Shown here: positions 3,986 to 53,282 of the stretch, in pieces | How positions within the stretch are numbered: the stretch's first letter is position 1 | Layout: the number at the start of each line of letters is the position of its first letter | Source of the DNA: Escherichia coli | Lineage (GTDB): Bacteria; Pseudomonadota; Gammaproteobacteria; Enterobacterales; Enterobacteriaceae | Length of the DNA: 64,000 nucleotides | Strand: one strand, 5' to 3' | NCBI RefSeq assembly: GCF_016903815.1 | Contig: NZ_CP069973.1 | The notes under the pieces: model-generated | Seen by the model: the letters and a program-made list of their open reading frames with translations, nothing else | Database searches by the model: none | Told to the model about the DNA's origin: nothing | Program-made: the position numbers and the translations under genes

Positions 3986-4741
<756 letters not shown>

Positions 4742-4845
4742 ATCAGCATACTTGTCCTTAGCCTTCTGCAGTGACAGCTGGTAGTACAGCGTGCTTCTGG
4801 CCAGCCCTGCAGCCTTTAACAGATCAGACTGGCAGTGTCCGCACC

Positions 4846-5376
4846 TCAGGCTCCGGATGACTTTCGTTTTTTCTCCAGCTCCTGGCGCTTTTTTTCCAGG
4901 AGATGCTCCTGCATGGCTTTCAGATATGCATTTTCTGCGCGAAGATAACGCAGCTCATTCTTCATCTCTTCCGGCGTCATGTTTGCCTCGTTTTCATGGG
5001 TATCATCAGAACGGGTCATGCATTTCTCCTTCCTGCGCCTGATAAAGGCCTCATTACCAGATTTGCGGTAGCCTTTTATCCAGTTTTTAACCGTGTTGTG
5101 GCTGGGAATGTTAAACCGGGCAGCTACCCGGGGTAGAGACTCAGAATGCCCGAGAGCATAAAGAACCACGCAAAGTTTATCTTCAGGAGAATAGCTACGC
5201 CTGTGTCTGCAATCCAGTGCCCGAGGACCGTGAAGAAGAAAAAGATTAATCCAGTGTGAGAGGCTGGTGTGAGAAAGTTGAAAGAGTTTTGCCGTAGAAA
5301 TGATGCCTGCATGACCAGCCAGGTAATGATTTACAGCGGCAAGTTTTACTTCAAATGAATGTTTCATAAACTGCAC
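4846..5376 (-). CDS. IS3-family transposase orfA (HTH DNA-binding part, leucine-zipper-like C-terminus)
   Basis: ORF inside the IS; 3' end carries A AAA AAC slippery heptamer (about 4868..4875) typical of IS3-family frameshifting. Confidence 0.8.
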   Translation of the reverse strand: MQFMKHSFEVKLAAVNHYLAGHAGIISTAKLFQLSHTSLSHWINLFLLHGPRALDCRHRRSYSPEDKLCVVLYALGHSESLPRVAARFNIPSHNTVKNWIKGYRKSGNEAFIRRRKEKCMTRSDDTHENEANMTPEEMKNELRYLRAENAYLKAMQEHLLEKKRQELEKKRKSSGA

Positions 5377-16946: not shown

Positions 16947-16994
16947 ATGAAACACACACCGTTTTTCTTCGCATTCTTTTTTACCTTCCCCTGA
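16947..16994 (+). CDS. pheL: pheA leader peptide (Phe-rich, MKHTPFFFAFFFTFP)
   Basis: 15-codon ORF with 7 Phe codons followed by terminator hairpin; classic attenuation layout. Confidence 0.85.
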   Translation: MKHTPFFFAFFFTFP

Positions 16995-42519: not shown

Positions 42520-42563
42520 AGGTGGGCGTGCCCACTGAGTTGGGTTCGATTCCCTAACCTCGT
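42520..42563 (+). other. tRNA 3'-end-like fragment (T-arm-like GGGTTCGATTCCC), not a complete tRNA
   Basis: T-loop consensus TTCGATT with flanking G/C stem; upstream part cannot be folded into a cloverleaf. Confidence 0.3.
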
Positions 42564-43390
42564 ATTATTCCTCTCGATATTTTTATTGCTGGGTTTTCCT
42601 TTCTTATTTCATTTTTAATTTGCTCATCACAAATTAAATAATCTATGTTTTTTGCTTTAACAAGTTCTTTAACGCTAATGTTAATTGAATTTAATAGATT
42701 TGCATTCCGCATGTTAGCCCCTTCATAAGTAACGGATTTAAAATCACATCCTTTTAATATGCAGCTTTTCATTTCGCTATCTGTAAAATACCCCCCTTCA
42801 AAACTGCAGTTTTCGAAAGTGACATTTTGAAAACATGTATTAAATGCCTTAATATTTCTTAGCTTGCAGTTTTTGAATTTAACACTCTTAACTCTATTGC
42901 CTGTAATATTTAGAGCTTGAATTGTGCAATTATCGAAAGAACAATCTCTAATGTATGATTCGCTCATATTCAAGCCGGTTAAGTCAGCGTCTTTAAAATG
43001 TAAATATTTGATAGTGGACATTTTATCAAGTTCAATCCTTGGAACTTGAATGTTATATATTCCTTTAGCATTTAACTGACGTATGATTTTTATCTTCATA
43101 ATATTCAGTTCTGCAGAAGAATGCTTTGCCAGATTTTCAAGATCTTCAATTAGTTCGTGAATAGCATCTTTATTTTGCCTTTTATTTTCAAAATAGTAAA
43201 GAATCACACCCAAAACAAGAAAGTCTAAAATTGAAGAATTTGCATTAACAAGAAAATTCTCCATGAATTTTGAGTTGTAGTTATCATTATAAACAGACAA
43301 CCCTACTATAAGCCCGGAGTATAAAAAAAAGATACCTATAATATATTTCATATTGCTTATTGTACGCCTAAAAGATGAAGTTCTTTTCAT
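42554..43390 (-). CDS. membrane-anchored pentapeptide-repeat protein (accessory/moron)
   Basis: Very A+T-rich ORF; start chosen at MKRTSSF (AGGT 5 nt upstream); two N-terminal hydrophobic segments, then tandem 5-residue repeats (…DADLTGLNMSESYIRDCSFDNCTIQALNITGN…). Confidence 0.7.
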   Translation of the reverse strand: MKRTSSFRRTISNMKYIIGIFFLYSGLIVGLSVYNDNYNSKFMENFLVNANSSILDFLVLGVILYYFENKRQNKDAIHELIEDLENLAKHSSAELNIMKIKIIRQLNAKGIYNIQVPRIELDKMSTIKYLHFKDADLTGLNMSESYIRDCSFDNCTIQALNITGNRVKSVKFKNCKLRNIKAFNTCFQNVTFENCSFEGGYFTDSEMKSCILKGCDFKSVTYEGANMRNANLLNSINISVKELVKAKNIDYLICDEQIKNEIRKENPAIKISRGIIRG

Positions 43391-43527: not shown

Positions 43528-44163
43528 ATGAACACATTAAACACCATTCAAGAGTTAGCACGTGCCATTCGCAACCTCATCCGCTCAGGCGTGGTGACTG
43601 AGGTCGATACTGTGCAGGGGCTGTGCCGCGTACAAAGCGGCGGGATCCAGACTACATGGCTGAACTGGCTGACCACCCGCGCCGGTCGTTCGCGGACGTG
43701 GTGGGCTCCCTCGGTCGGTGAGCAGGTTCTGCTGCTGGCAATCGGTGGCGAGCTTGATACCGCTTTCGTGCTGCCGGGTATTTTCTCCGACGATAACCCC
43801 GCCCCGTCTGCCTCGGCGGATGCGTGGCATGTGGCTTTCCCTGATGGTGCGGTCATTGAGTACGAGCCCGAAACCGGCGCGCTGACGGTCAGCGGCATAA
43901 AAACGGCCGACGTGACGGCATCGGAGTCCATCACCGCAACCGTACCGCTGGTACTGGTGAAAGCCTCGACCAGTATCACCCTCGACACCCCGGAGGTGAT
44001 TTGCACCAATAAGCTAACGACGGCGACGCTTGAGGTGCAGAAAGGCGGCAAGATGAGCGGCAATATCGAACATACCGGCGGGTCACTGTCGTCTAATGGC
44101 AAGGTACTCCACACCCATAAACACCCGGGCGACAGCGGCGGGCAAACGGGGGCACCGTTATGA
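43528..44163 (+). CDS. baseplate spike/assembly protein V
   Basis: 211-aa product from the ATG at MNTLNTIQELARA; recognised P2 V-like sequence. Confidence 0.85.
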   Translation: MNTLNTIQELARAIRNLIRSGVVTEVDTVQGLCRVQSGGIQTTWLNWLTTRAGRSRTWWAPSVGEQVLLLAIGGELDTAFVLPGIFSDDNPAPSASADAWHVAFPDGAVIEYEPETGALTVSGIKTADVTASESITATVPLVLVKASTSITLDTPEVICTNKLTTATLEVQKGGKMSGNIEHTGGSLSSNGKVLHTHKHPGDSGGQTGAPL

Positions 44164-47002: not shown

Positions 47003-47398
47003 ATGATTTATTTCTCAAAATCGACTAATGGTTTTTTCTTTGATGGTATAAACAGCGACATGCCTGCTGACATTGTTGAGATAAGTACAGACTTATACAA
47101 TGAATTAATTGCCGGACAGCAGGAAGGGGGGAAATTAATCACGTCAGATGAAAATGGTTTACCGGTACTGAAATCTCCGGCGATTGATTATGTCGCACGT
47201 GCGGAAAATCAGCGAATGCAGTTACTTGCTCATGCCGATAATGTCACAGCTGACTGGCGAGTGGAATTAATGCTTGGTGATATCAGCAGTACAGATAAAG
47301 AAAAACTATCCGCCTGGATGAACTACAAAAAAGAAGTAAAAGCCGTCGACACTTCGACGGCTCCTGAGATTAGCTGGCCTGAGTTACCGGAGGCGTAG
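47003..47398 (+). CDS. tail fibre assembly chaperone (G), current orientation
   Basis: Start chosen at MIYFSKSTNGFFF after H stop. Confidence 0.7.
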   Translation: MIYFSKSTNGFFFDGINSDMPADIVEISTDLYNELIAGQQEGGKLITSDENGLPVLKSPAIDYVARAENQRMQLLAHADNVTADWRVELMLGDISSTDKEKLSAWMNYKKEVKAVDTSTAPEISWPELPEA

Positions 47399-47813
47399 GC
47401 CATTCAATATCTGGCGCACTGGAAGTATTGACCTGTTCCAGTGCGTCCAGGTAATCCAGCCACAAATTATATTGCGCCAGTTCGTCACCGTTCAGACGAC
47501 CAATAGCTGCTTTACCGGGCCATTGCTTACTGTTCATGTAGTCGTTTGCCTGGTTGATTTTTTTCTGCTTTTCGGCGTTCGCAGCTTCCACTTCTTCATC
47601 GTGACTTAACGGTGGTAAATCCACCCATACAGGCTGCCCATTTTCATCAGCGCCGCGGGTTTGCCCTTCTGGTGGCATTCCTGAATATGTGAGAAAAACG
47701 TCATCAGAAACACCTACTAAGTCATCTGGCCAGGTGTTGGCTGCTATGTACAGCGACTTCATTTCTTCAGGGTAAAAACCTAGAGTTGATGGAGAAAAAT
47801 AATAAAGAGTCAT
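47370..47813 (-). CDS. alternative tail fibre assembly chaperone (G')
   Basis: 147-aa ORF convergent with G; shares C-terminal motif (…SAPDIEWPTPP vs …TAPEISWPELP). Confidence 0.7.
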   Translation of the reverse strand: MTLYYFSPSTLGFYPEEMKSLYIAANTWPDDLVGVSDDVFLTYSGMPPEGQTRGADENGQPVWVDLPPLSHDEEVEAANAEKQKKINQANDYMNSKQWPGKAAIGRLNGDELAQYNLWLDYLDALEQVNTSSAPDIEWPTPPVTQAS

Positions 47814-47814
47814 A

Positions 47815-48165
47815 TCAGCTTCCTATTGCGAACCAGCGAAAGACATAAACCCCAGATGTTGCATCACAGCGCATCAGGAAATTTGTTTTTGTAAAACTTC
47901 CTGCCGCTCCCGCAATAACCTTTCCACCACCATTGTCGTAAGAGACTACAACCTGATGGCAAATGTTCGGAAAAGAAACCGAGAAGTTAATTGCATTTCC
48001 CGTATTACCTGTCGCACCCACTCCGGCTGTTGCTGATCCCCATTGAATGATTAAGCCGCTAGGTAGTTTTTGATATCCAGCAGCACCCGTTACAGACAAA
48101 AATGAATTTATATCTGGAATCTGGTTTTCCCCTGTTCCGACATCCCGTTTCGCTGCTTCTCCCAA
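47815..48165 (-). CDS. alternative tail fibre C-terminal segment (H'), silent in this orientation
   Basis: Homologous to H C-terminus (GEAAKR.VG.G.NQIPD…YQKLPSGLIIQWG); has no promoter or start of its own. Confidence 0.6.
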   Translation of the reverse strand: MGEAAKRDVGTGENQIPDINSFLSVTGAAGYQKLPSGLIIQWGSATAGVGATGNTGNAINFSVSFPNICHQVVVSYDNGGGKVIAGAAGSFTKTNFLMRCDATSGVYVFRWFAIGS

Positions 48166-48236
48166 ACCAACCTTTTAGAAAATGCAGATATTCCGTTCAG
48201 CTGGCATGTTTCCGACTTTTTACCGGGTTATTTCTC

Positions 48237-48483
48237 ATGTTTATCGGTTATGTACGTGTATCAACAAATGACCAGAACACCGCATTACAGCGAAATGAAC
48301 TGGAGTGCGCAGGATGTGAGCTGATTTTCGAAGATAAAATCAGCGGCAAAACATCAATCAGACTGGCCGGGGCTAAAGAGGTTACTCAGAACCTTGTCAG
48401 AGGGCGATACGCTTGTGGTCTGGAAACTGGATCGCCTCGGGTATCTCAACGCTATACAAACAATTTCCCGCATCCGTTGCTGA
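48237..48483 (+). pseudogene. Hin/Gin/Pin-family serine DNA invertase, frameshifted and 3'-truncated remnant
   Basis: N-terminus MFIGYVRVSTNDQNTALQRNELECAGCELIFEDKISGK matches the invertase catalytic region; homology continues in another frame (…PGLKRLLRTLSEGDTLVVWKLDRLG) after an A4 run at 48349..48352, then is lost before a stop at 48481. Confidence 0.75.
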
Positions 48484-49775: not shown

Positions 49776-50294
49776 ATGGCACTACCCCGCAAACTTAAAT
49801 ATCTGAACATGTTCAATGACGGCCTTAGCTACATGGGCGTTGTGGAATCCGTGACGCTGCCGAAGCTGACCCGCAAGCTCGAAAACTATCGCGGCGGCGG
49901 CATGAATGGCGCGGCGGCGATTGACCTTGGTCTCGACGATGATGCGCTCACCGTCGAATGGTCTGTCGGTGGCCTGCCTGATGTGGCGCTGTGGGCGCAG
50001 TACGCCGCGCCGGGTGCTGACGCTGTGCCGTTGCGTTTTGCTGGCTCTTACCAACGTGACGACACTGGCGAAATCGTGGCGGTCGAGGTGGTCATGCGTG
50101 GCCGTCATAAAGAAATCGACGGCGGCGAGAATAAGCAGGGTGAAAACACCTCGACCAAACTGTCGACCGTATGCACCTATTACCGCCTCACGATTGATGG
50201 TAGCGACGTCATCGAAATCGACACCGTCAACATGGTTGAGAAGGTGAACGGCGTCGACCGTCTGGAACAGCACCGCCGCGCAATCGGGCTGTAA
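49776..50294 (+). CDS. tail tube protein FII
   Basis: 172-aa product, position and size. Confidence 0.9.
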   Translation: MALPRKLKYLNMFNDGLSYMGVVESVTLPKLTRKLENYRGGGMNGAAAIDLGLDDDALTVEWSVGGLPDVALWAQYAAPGADAVPLRFAGSYQRDDTGEIVAVEVVMRGRHKEIDGGENKQGENTSTKLSTVCTYYRLTIDGSDVIEIDTVNMVEKVNGVDRLEQHRRAIGL

Positions 50295-50357
50295 TTCCCT
50301 GACCGGTCAGCACTGCTGGCCGGTTATTAATCCCCATTCAGAGCAGAGAAAAACATC

Positions 50358-50693
50358 ATGGCAAAAGCACCACGTAAAACCGCTGAATTTGTTGATATGG
50401 CTGGCAATGAAATTGACACCGTAAACCCGAACGTCGTGACCCTCGACAAGCCGATTAAGCGCGCCGGTCAGACGATTGATAAAGTCACACTGATTGAGCC
50501 GAACGCCGGTACCCTGCGCGGTGTCAGTCTGGCAGCGGTGGCGCAGTCCGAAGTCGATGCGCTGATTAAGGTATTGCCACGCATGACCTACCCCGCGCTT
50601 ACGGCGCAGGAGCTTACCGCAATGAACCTGCCCGATATGCTGTCGTTGGCCGCTAAGGTGATTGGTTTTTTGTCACCGGCTTCGGCGGAGTAG
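50358..50693 (+). CDS. tail assembly chaperone E
   Basis: 111-aa ORF upstream of tape measure gene. Confidence 0.8.
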   Translation: MAKAPRKTAEFVDMAGNEIDTVNPNVVTLDKPIKRAGQTIDKVTLIEPNAGTLRGVSLAAVAQSEVDALIKVLPRMTYPALTAQELTAMNLPDMLSLAAKVIGFLSPASAE

Positions 50694-50845
50694 ATTTCCC
50701 GCCCGACCTGTCGACCGATGACCTGATGGCGGATATCGCGGTGATATTCCACTGGCCGCTATCAGATCTCTATTCCCTGAGCCTGACCGAGCTCATCACA
50801 TGGCGCGAAAAGGCGCTGCAGCGTAGCGGACACCACAATGAGTAA
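50358..50845 (+). CDS. tail assembly chaperone E+E' (predicted -1 frameshift product)
   Basis: Slippery TTTTTTG at 50665..50671 near 3' end of E; the -1 frame stays open to 50845, overlapping the T start. Confidence 0.55.
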
Positions 50846-53282
50846 TAACCTGAGACTTGAGGTTTTGCTGAAAGCGGTCGACCAGGCGACCCGACCGCTT
50901 AAATCCATCCAGACCGCGAGTAAAACCCTGTCGGGCGATATTCGCGACACACAAAAAGGGCTGCGTGACCTGAACGGGCAGGCCGCGAAAATCGACGGCT
51001 TTCGCAAAACCAGCGCTCAACTGGCCGTAACCGGCCAGTCGCTGGAGAAGGCAAAGCGCGAGGCTGAAGCGCTTGCCACGCAATTCAAAAATACTGAGCG
51101 CCCGACGCGAGCGCAGGCACAGGTGCTCGAATCCGCAAAACGTGCCGCCGAGGGGCTGCAGGTTAAATACAACAGCCTCACCGAGTCGGTTAAACGCCAG
51201 CAACGCGAGCTGGGTGCCGCCGGTATCAATACCCGCAATCTGGCAAACGATGAGCGGGGGCTTAAAACACGTATCAGCGAGACGACGGCGCAGCTCAACC
51301 GGCAGCGTGAAGCATTGGCGAAGGTCAGCGCACAGCAGGCGCACCTAAACCGAGTGAAAGAGCGATATAAATCGGGTAAGGAGCTTGCCGGTAACATGGC
51401 CGCTGCAGGTGCTGCCGGGGTCGGTATTGCGACAGCGGGAACGATGGCCGGGGTTAAATTGCTGATGCCCGGTTATGACTTTGCGCAAAAAAACTCCGAG
51501 CTGCAGGCTGTGCTCGGGGTCGATAAGCAGTCGCCAGAAATGCAGGCGTTACGCAAACAGGCGCGCCAGCTCGGTGACAATACAGCCGCTTCTGCTGATG
51601 ATGCAGCCAGTGCGCAGATTATCATTGCAAAAGGTGGTGGTGATGCGGCGGCTATAGCGGCCATGACACCTGTGACTCTCAACCTGTCGCTTGCAAACAA
51701 AAAAACAATGGAGGAAAACGCGCAACTGTTGATGGGGACAAAAGCCGCCTTTCAACTTTCTAATGACGCGGCTGCGCATATCGGTGATGTTCTTTCAACC
51801 ACGATGAACAAAACCACCGCTGATTTTCAGGGACTAAGTGACTCATTAAGTTACCTTGCCCCTGTTGCGAAAAATGCTGGGGTGAGTCTTGAACAGGCGG
51901 CGGCGATTACCGGCACACTTCATGATAATAACATCAGGGGGTCAATGGCTGGGACTGGCGGCGCTGCTGTTATAACGAGACTACAGGCACCCACAGGCAA
52001 AGCATACGATGCTCTCAAAGAGCTGGGAGTTAAAACCTCAGACAGCAAAGGCAATACGCGCCCGCTATTTACCATCCTGAAAGAAATGCAGGCCAGTTTT
52101 AAGCGCAACAATCTTGGTACCTCACAAAAGGCCGAGTACGTGAAAACGATATTCGGCGAGGAGGCTATGAAGTCTGCAAGTGTCCTTATGGCGGCAGCGG
52201 CAAGCGGAAAACTCGATAAGCTAACTGCCACGATAAAGGATTCAGACGGTAAAACAGAGGAGCTGGTCAAGGTTATGCAGGATAACCTCGGCGGCGACTT
52301 CAAGGAGTTCCAGTCAGCATATGAGGCGGTCGGCACTGACCTCTATGACCAGCAAGATAGCTCATTGCGTCAGCTAACTCAGACAGCAACACGGTATGTG
52401 CTAAAGCTTGATGACTGGATCAAAGACAACAAGGAGTTAGCGGAAACTATCGGCATCATCGCCGGTGGTGCGCTGGCGCTGATTGGTATCATCGGCGGCA
52501 TTGGTCTCGTTGCGTGGCCGGTTGTCATGGGGATTAATGCAATTATCGCCGCTGCTGGCGTGCTGGGTACGGTCTTTACTGTCGTCGGTAGTGCCATTGC
52601 GACAGCGCTCGGTGCGATTACCTGGCCGATAGTGGCCGTCGGTGCGGCGATTGTGGCGGGGGCGCTACTCATCCGTAAATATTGGGAGCCCATCAGCGCA
52701 TTTTTCTCGGGAGTGATTGAAGGCATCATGAGTGCCTTTGCCCCAGTCGGGGAAATGTTAGCTCCACTGGCTCCCATTTTTGATGGTCTCGGCGAGAAAC
52801 TGCGCGGCGTCTGGCAGTGGTTTAAAGACCTGATAGCACCGGTTAAGGCCACACAGGAAACGCTTGATAGCTGCAAAAATGTCGGCGTCATATTTGGTCA
52901 GGCACTGGCCTCTGCCTTGATGGCTCCGCTCAATGTTTTTAACAAGCTGCGCAGCGGTGTCGACTGGCTTCTCGAAAAGCTCGGCATCATCAACAAAGAG
53001 TCGGACAGCCTCGACCAGACCGCCGCCAAAACCAATGCCGCCACACAGGGTAATTCCTACATCCCGGCAACCAGCACATATGGCGGCTATCAGGCTTATC
53101 AGCCAGTTACCGCACCGGCGGGGCGCTCTTACATTGACCAGAGCAAAAGCGAATACAACATCAATCTGCCGGGAGGTGTTGCGCCGGGGCATCAGCTTGA
53201 CAGACAACTACGCGACACGCTCGAACAGATTGAGCGCGATAAACGCGCCCGCCAGCGTGCCAACATGACCCACGACTATTGA
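50838..53282 (+). CDS. tail tape measure protein T
   Basis: 814-aa product, coiled-coil-rich N-terminus, Gly/Ala-rich TM-like segment. Confidence 0.9.
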   Translation: MSNNLRLEVLLKAVDQATRPLKSIQTASKTLSGDIRDTQKGLRDLNGQAAKIDGFRKTSAQLAVTGQSLEKAKREAEALATQFKNTERPTRAQAQVLESAKRAAEGLQVKYNSLTESVKRQQRELGAAGINTRNLANDERGLKTRISETTAQLNRQREALAKVSAQQAHLNRVKERYKSGKELAGNMAAAGAAGVGIATAGTMAGVKLLMPGYDFAQKNSELQAVLGVDKQSPEMQALRKQARQLGDNTAASADDAASAQIIIAKGGGDAAAIAAMTPVTLNLSLANKKTMEENAQLLMGTKAAFQLSNDAAAHIGDVLSTTMNKTTADFQGLSDSLSYLAPVAKNAGVSLEQAAAITGTLHDNNIRGSMAGTGGAAVITRLQAPTGKAYDALKELGVKTSDSKGNTRPLFTILKEMQASFKRNNLGTSQKAEYVKTIFGEEAMKSASVLMAAAASGKLDKLTATIKDSDGKTEELVKVMQDNLGGDFKEFQSAYEAVGTDLYDQQDSSLRQLTQTATRYVLKLDDWIKDNKELAETIGIIAGGALALIGIIGGIGLVAWPVVMGINAIIAAAGVLGTVFTVVGSAIATALGAITWPIVAVGAAIVAGALLIRKYWEPISAFFSGVIEGIMSAFAPVGEMLAPLAPIFDGLGEKLRGVWQWFKDLIAPVKATQETLDSCKNVGVIFGQALASALMAPLNVFNKLRSGVDWLLEKLGIINKESDSLDQTAAKTNAATQGNSYIPATSTYGGYQAYQPVTAPAGRSYIDQSKSEYNINLPGGVAPGHQLDRQLRDTLEQIERDKRARQRANMTHDY

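Follow-up and report, generated by a model that had tools for sequence, protein, structure and literature searches.

In phage P2, a -1 shift at TTTTTTG in the tail genes gives two products, E (91 aa) and E+E' (142 aa), as reported by Christie et al. (2002, J Bacteriol 184:6522), here cited through PMC3091744 and PMC5009743. The shift site is conserved in P2-like phages of Burkholderia and the P2 site has no downstream hairpin (PMC3091744). P2 is listed among the conserved tail-assembly frameshifts in the Atkins review (PMC5009743). The P2 record (AF063097) contains a joined CDS described as "gpE+E', -1 frameshift, essential tail protein" and a misc_feature "site of -1 translational frameshift", which lies 1 nt 3' of the heptamer homologous to the one studied here. 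In the record of phage 186 (NC_001317; Eganvirus), orf52 is described as "probably produced by a translational frameshift from orf51", so that the 186 shift is only predicted, in a record note. The analogous system of lambda, gpG/gpGT, uses G_GGA_AAG. Its genes lie between the tube and tape-measure genes, a short abundant product and a rarer -1 product are made from one start, and the extension ends at the tape-measure start. In lambda, the tape measure protein is bound by gpG and by the G portion of gpGT, and the tube protein by the T portion; the virion contains neither product (PMC5009743).

The window analysed in this study was a stretch of 64,000 nt from Escherichia coli. It contained a prophage at about 23.6-55.3 kb, extending from the integrase gene (about 23.6 kb) to ogr (55.2 kb) and located between yfiB and rplS. 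As judged from sequence similarity, the prophage is of the 186 type (Eganvirus) and not P2 proper. Over positions 50300-50900, nucleotide identity was 94% to 186, 95% to PSP3 and 74-76% to P2, and the genes described below are H (orf51/orf52) and G in the 186 nomenclature. The region was 100% identical to E. coli strain 2779 (NZ_CP103521) and to Escherichia phage vB_EcoM-613R3, whose deposited genome record contained an identical stretch of 601 nt. The locus very probably carries the conserved programmed -1 ribosomal frameshift of the tail assembly chaperone genes of P2/186 phages (Peduoviridae), here in a 186-like prophage. The E/E' shift is an already known, textbook recoding signal, and the present case adds nothing new biologically to the paradigm of P2 E/E+E' and lambda G/GT.

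The zero-frame product, a tail assembly chaperone of 111 aa homologous to P2 E and to 186 gene H/orf51, was encoded at 50358-50693 on the plus strand, with its ATG at 50358 and its stop codon TAG at 50691-50693. The slippery heptamer T_TTT_TTG was found at 50666-50672 on the same strand. Counted from the ATG at 50358 it begins at offset 2, on codon position 3, and the E frame reads GGT TTT TTG; this is the X_XXY_YYZ phase, with TTT (50667-50669) in the P site and TTG (50670-50672) in the A site. In the -1 frame, a stop codon TAA at 50654-50656 (plus strand) confines the zone in which a shift can lead into E' to 50657-50690. The -1 frame is open from 50657, and the overlap of the two frames is thus only 34 nt long, with the heptamer inside it. 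The first codon read after the shift is GTC at 50672, and the E' extension (50672-50845, plus strand) comprises 57 codons (50672-50842) and TAA at 50843-50845. The predicted E+E' fusion is 162 aa long. The tape measure gene (P2 T, 186 G; Pfam PhageMin_Tail, E=8e-41) was located at 50838-53282 on the plus strand, and its ATG at 50838 overlapped the end of E' (ATGAGTAA), the E' stop codon lying 5 nt past that ATG. The first-pass annotation had placed TTTTTTG 20 nt before the E stop and had described the -1 frame as open for about 50 codons, to just past the tape-measure start. The heptamer and the end point were as described; the distance had to be corrected to 18 nt and the length to 57 codons. 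A similar junction was seen in 14 of 19 diverse lineages, in which the E' stop was located -8 to +5 nt from the start of T. By our own inference, since the 145 nt that precede the tape-measure start are translated by shifted ribosomes only, translation of T might be coupled to termination of E+E'.

Both frames encode recognizable proteins. E matched Pfam PF10109 Phage_TAC_7 ("tail assembly chaperone proteins, E, or 41 or 14") with E=1.2e-11 and PHROG 103 "tail protein" with E=7e-43, and its amino acid identity was 95% to 186 orf51 and 70% to P2 gpE. The 57-aa peptide of the -1 frame matched Pfam PF06528 Phage_P2_GpE (E=9.2e-21), a model that covers residues 19-54 and starts from a Met, and PHROG 1756 (E=2.7e-23) over residues 1-57. 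No NCBIfam model matched E, E' or the E+E' fusion. The local gene order according to Pfam was sheath, tube, E, E', tape measure, U, D and ogr, the last encoding an Ogr/Delta zinc-finger activator. The tube gene (Phage_tube, 49776-50294) lies upstream of E and the tape measure gene downstream. Between the tube gene and E, a hairpin with a T-rich tail was found at 50303-50331 on the plus strand (CCGGTCAGC-ACT-GCTGGCCGG followed by TTATTAAT). It is the counterpart of the partial terminator "tI" annotated at the homologous place in the 186 record, and such a terminator would leave E, T, U and D less transcribed than sheath and tube.

The locus shares with P2 a TTTTTTG at homologous codons (G-F-L), a 34-nt overlap bounded by TAAGGTG…, a 57-codon E', an overlap of ATG…TAA with the tape-measure gene and matches to both Pfam families. 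It differs from P2 not only in nucleotide sequence but also in amino acid sequence (70-72% identity), and E is 20 residues longer at the N-terminus (111 vs 91 aa), as in 186. The similarity to 186, where gene H (orf51/orf52) precedes G, extends to identical gene lengths and the tI hairpin. A single base differs in the overlap (GGAATAG vs GGAGTAG), and there are a few substitutions in E', where HWPLSDLY is found here and HWPPSELY in 186. Lambda gpG/gpGT resembles the locus in position, in the making of two products and in the end point of the extension, but it has no detectable sequence similarity, its proteins belong to other Pfam families and its heptamer is another one. E. coli dnaX and IS3/IS911 also use tandem slippage on X_XXY_YYZ, with an upstream Shine-Dalgarno (SD)-like sequence as a possible parallel; however, their heptamer is A_AAA_AAG and its stimulation by an SD and a hairpin or pseudoknot is proven, whereas no conserved RNA structure was found at the E/E' site and the SD-like element there is not robustly supported.

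The variant HWPLSD (50774-50785; HWPLSDLY) has Leu and Asp at positions that are Pro and Glu (HWPPSE) in at least 90% of the P2/186-group sequences. The same variant was present in the vB_EcoM-613R3 record and in several viral contigs, and Leu is found at this position also in Smp131 and RSA1.

Two sets of loci were used to determine how far the shift site is conserved. The close set comprised 84 loci, namely the window, P2, 186, vB_EcoM-613R3 and 80 viral contigs; the searches for related loci gave mainly near-identical relatives. The diverse set comprised 20 Peduoviridae, namely P2, 186 and 18 distant loci from 12 host genera that were obtained by tblastn against phage records. The hosts of the diverse set were Escherichia, Yersinia, Erwinia, Klebsiella, Salmonella, Stenotrophomonas, Pseudomonas, Burkholderia, Ralstonia, Mannheimia, Vibrio and Zymomonas. 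Relative to E, the frame of E' was -1 without exception, both in the 84 close loci (by tblastn) and in the 20 of the diverse set. TTTTTTG was present in the overlap of all close loci except two, and these two had TTTTTTA, which contains a synonymous Leu codon and keeps the motif. The T run (alignment columns 31-36) was invariant in 39 distinct sequences of the P2/186 group, and the heptamer at 50666-50672 aligned column for column with that of P2. The overlap of 34 nt was identical in length in P2, 186 and YenM06.16-2. An in-phase X_XXY_YYZ motif was found within the overlap in 20/20 diverse Peduoviridae, and it was T_TTT_TTN in 18/20. T_TTT_TTG occurred in 14 of them, T_TTT_TTT in two and T_TTT_TTC in one, and one more lineage had A_AAT_TTT followed by T_TTT_TTG. 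The remaining two were a P2-like phage of Mannheimia, with G_GGA_AAG, the heptamer of lambda, and Klebsiella phage Kp4847-1, with C_CCT_TTC. Both G_GGA_AAG and C_CCT_TTC are classical ribosomal shift motifs and not homopolymer runs.

The heptamer by itself is uninformative. TTTTTTG was present in 30 copies on both strands of the window, against 20.0 +/- 4.3 in shuffled sequences, and its presence in E is no more than expected by chance. The 153 ORFs of 80 aa or more in the six frames of the window were searched for an X_XXY_YYZ that stands in phase within the final 75 nt and is combined with a long -1 extension. In four of the 153, such a heptamer was accompanied by a -1 frame that stayed open for 39 codons or more beyond the stop, and two of these four were genuine shift sites, the E/E' site and an IS3 transposase. 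The third positive, an antisense ORF inside the capsid gene, was trivial. The fourth was an in-phase C_CCG_GGC at 44124-44130, close to the end of baseplate gene V, after which the -1 frame stays open for 114 codons beyond the V stop; it is very likely coincidental, because that frame is simply the following gene, W (GPW/gp25), whose start lies at the V stop. The arrangement of overlap and heptamer alone, taken without homology, is suggestive and not decisive. The evidence against chance is the Pfam match of the -1 peptide together with the conservation across the phage family.

The IS3-family transposase lies at 4019-5367 on the minus strand (CTGGAAAAAAAGCGCC) and represents a second programmed -1 frameshift in the window. 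Its A_AAA_AAG is located at about 4888-4894, its orfA at 4846-5376, and the -1 extension past the orfA stop is 275 codons long. RefSeq gives this transposase as a joined CDS marked "programmed frameshift".

The -1 region evolves as protein-coding sequence. In 65 unique sequences of the P2/186 group, nucleotide diversity outside the overlap was 0.082, 0.056 and 0.198 at positions 1, 2 and 3 of the E' codons, and variable columns made up 40/50 of position 3 against 38/100 of positions 1 and 2 (Fisher p=1e-6). This coding pattern has a bearing on whether E' is a separate small gene read from its own start, either ATG at 50726 or the CTG at 50708 chosen by RefSeq, with the heptamer being incidental. 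At 50708-50845 PGAP calls a 45-aa "GpE family phage tail protein" on its own, a separate CDS for E' also appears in several phage records, and the Pfam model starts at the Met (residues 19-54 of 57). However, direct reading of the -1 frame revealed no ATG, GTG or TTG from TAA at 50654 to ATG at 50726 and no SD-like sequence upstream of 50726. The segment 50693-50725, after the E stop and before the first -1 ATG, also showed the third-position variation of coding sequence (0.154, 0.128 and 0.307 at positions 1, 2 and 3; p=0.054 over only 33 columns), and F114, P115, D121, D122 and L123 within it were invariant in the P2/186 group. The Met of the LMAD motif, which serves as the E' start for Pfam and for many annotations, was V, I, A or W in 8 of 21 lineages. 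The coding pattern of 50693-50725, its invariant residues and the variable LMAD Met all argue against an independently initiated E'. In addition, the -1 relation and the in-phase heptamer were universal in the compared loci, and the fused product is given in the P2 record and in the literature. We consider a separate E' gene extremely unlikely.

Slippage of RNA polymerase on the six T, with one U inserted into the mRNA, would replace the ribosomal shift and would give the same downstream frame, and the site is indeed a run of six T. A run of six residues is short for efficient transcriptional slippage, however, and it always stood in the X_XXY_YYZ codon phase, which polymerase slippage would not need. 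The fact that the codon phase was constant and that two lineages had the non-homopolymeric G_GGA_AAG and C_CCT_TTC argues for ribosomal over transcriptional slippage, to which we give hardly any probability. It is also conceivable that the prophage is defective and that the site is a relic conserved by descent only and out of use. An invertase pseudogene with a frameshift 2 kb upstream and the two unusual substitutions in E' would fit such a relic. On the other hand, all other structural, lysis, replication and integration genes were annotated as intact, and E/E' were 100% identical to the vB_EcoM-613R3 record and to several viral contigs. A relic is very unlikely, if slightly less so than the other two explanations.

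Under a programmed ribosomal frameshift, most ribosomes would translate E (111 aa) and stop at TAG at 50691, and a minority would slip by -1 with TTT in the P site and TTG in the A site of T_TTT_TTG. The slipped ribosomes would resume at GTC at 50672 and produce the 162-aa E+E', whose coding sequence runs over the tape-measure start codon and ends at 50845. Two readings of the junction are predicted: …KVIGFLVTGFGG… for tandem slippage once Leu has been decoded, and …VIGFFVTGFGG… for slippage of the P-site tRNA-Phe ahead of the decoding of UUG. By analogy with lambda gpG/gpGT, the tape measure protein would be coated by the E part that both products share, and tube subunits would be recruited by the rarer E' domain. 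A fixed ratio of E to E+E' would be set by the shift frequency, and neither protein would be expected to stay in the virion. The anatomy of the locus, the homologies, the coding selection and the family-wide conservation come from the present sequence comparisons, and the shift of P2 at this heptamer comes from the literature; that the shift is used in this prophage, how efficient it is and how E and E' share the work are what we infer here.

The region around the heptamer was examined for stimulators of the shift. No downstream stimulatory structure, such as the hairpin or pseudoknot 5-9 nt from the heptamer in dnaX/IS3-type signals, was indicated by folding, as the segments 50673-50760 and 50640-50720 folded no better than shuffled sequences (z=-0.02 and -0.31). 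A hairpin of 50674-50678 with 50683-50687 (C[A/G]CCG…CGG[C/T]G) could pair in 84% of the cells of the alignment, but its covariation was below the shuffle mean. Its second pair was an A·C mismatch in most 186-type sequences, and the hairpin (50674-50687) sits in doubly coding sequence; it was rejected. A hairpin enclosing the heptamer, formed by GGTGAT at 50657-50662 and GTCACC at 50672-50677, paired in 96% of cells, showed no two-sided changes and equalled the shuffles. It was not conserved beyond the P2/186 group, and both arms would be inside the ribosome at the moment of the shift. It was likewise discarded. No Rfam family scored above its threshold in the region. The sole match was toga_FSE with 19 bits against a threshold of 40 bits (E=0.71), and it is a chance match, falling on the tI terminator hairpin and not on the shift site.

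A candidate upstream stimulator is the SD-like sequence AGGTGAT at 50656-50662 on the plus strand, which is complementary to the 3' end of 16S rRNA and lies 3 nt 5' of the heptamer. In 13 of 23 lineages no other site in the E gene matched the anti-SD as strongly as the SD-like element, and similar GGTG or GAGGTG elements were found 5' of the heptamer in many Peduoviridae. As a control, the eight upstream codons were recoded synonymously according to the codon usage of each phage. Under recoding, an SD match of the observed strength had a probability of 0.07 in the window and 0.04 in P2; two Burkholderia phages gave 0.01, and many others about 0.5. The probability was 0.04-0.09 in the P2/186 group and below 0.05 in 3 of 22 lineages, and the combined p was 0.016 over lineages that are not independent of one another. 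The SD-like signal thus mostly dissolves under recoding, because the conserved K/E-V residues largely dictate AGGT. AGGTGAT is a weakly supported candidate for a stimulator of the shift.

Published efficiencies of the heptamer are not easily reconciled. In E. coli reporters, -1 frameshifting on U_UUU_UUG amounted to 0.118% when no stimulator was present, and to 0.247% or 0.765% when the stimulator of IS911 or of IS3, respectively, was included (Sharma et al., PMC4066793 Table S3), and this heptamer is absent from the efficient prokaryotic motifs in that study (PMC4066793). The shift in P2 and its relatives is reported to be 2-3 times more efficient than that of lambda (Atkins review, PMC5009743), where the ratio of gpG to gpGT is about 30:1 (PMC5009743). 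Either the native context gives the weak heptamer an unrecognised boost, or the estimate published for P2 depends on the expression system. An undescribed stimulator is suspected because a reporter shift of 0.1-0.8% stands against 2-3 times lambda's roughly 1:30. It is conceivable, though on balance we doubt it, that the P2/186 shift site depends on such a context-specific stimulator, which may be the SD-like AGGTGAT/GAGGTG or an effect of the nascent peptide or of codon context. If so, the locus would be a compact natural model for boosting a weak heptamer without RNA structure. This gap in efficiency is the sole part of the finding with research interest.

The main value of the finding is practical. 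The recoding signal on which tail assembly would depend is still present in the tail module of this E. coli prophage. The first-pass annotation had likened the arrangement to P2 E/E' and, by analogy, to lambda G/GT, and gene order, both Pfam families, the site in the P2 record and the literature agree with this. It had further taken the tail module to be intact, and so it appears in the RefSeq annotation of the 100% identical chromosome, where the tail, head, lysis, replication and integration genes are intact and the only nearby pseudogene is the frameshifted DNA invertase, which adjoins an inverted tail-fibre cassette. Its suggestion that gene calling should include a fused product is well founded. 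On the identical chromosome RefSeq gives E as "phage tail assembly protein" and E' as a separate 45-aa CDS from the non-canonical CTG at 50708 (WP_306344985.1), with no joined product, and the same split of E and E' is found in several phage GenBank records. The error of annotation is systematic and easily corrected for P2/186-like prophages.

Some other features of the window may be mentioned. The segment 46973-48483 looks like an invertible tail-fibre cassette for host range, with facing tail-fibre assembly genes at 47003-47398 (plus strand) and 47370-47813 (minus strand) and a gp53-like fibre tip at 47815-48165 (minus strand). It also contains the frameshifted DNA invertase, annotated "recombinase family protein", at 48102-48483, and the tail-fibre switch is probably locked in its present orientation. 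A pentapeptide-repeat gene at 42554-43390 on the minus strand, between the tail-completion genes and baseplate gene V, looks like inserted cargo ("moron"). The gene for the pheL leader peptide of the pheA operon was found at 16947-16994 on the minus strand; PMC3082878 reports a high level of apparently incidental frameshifting in the decoding of pheL.
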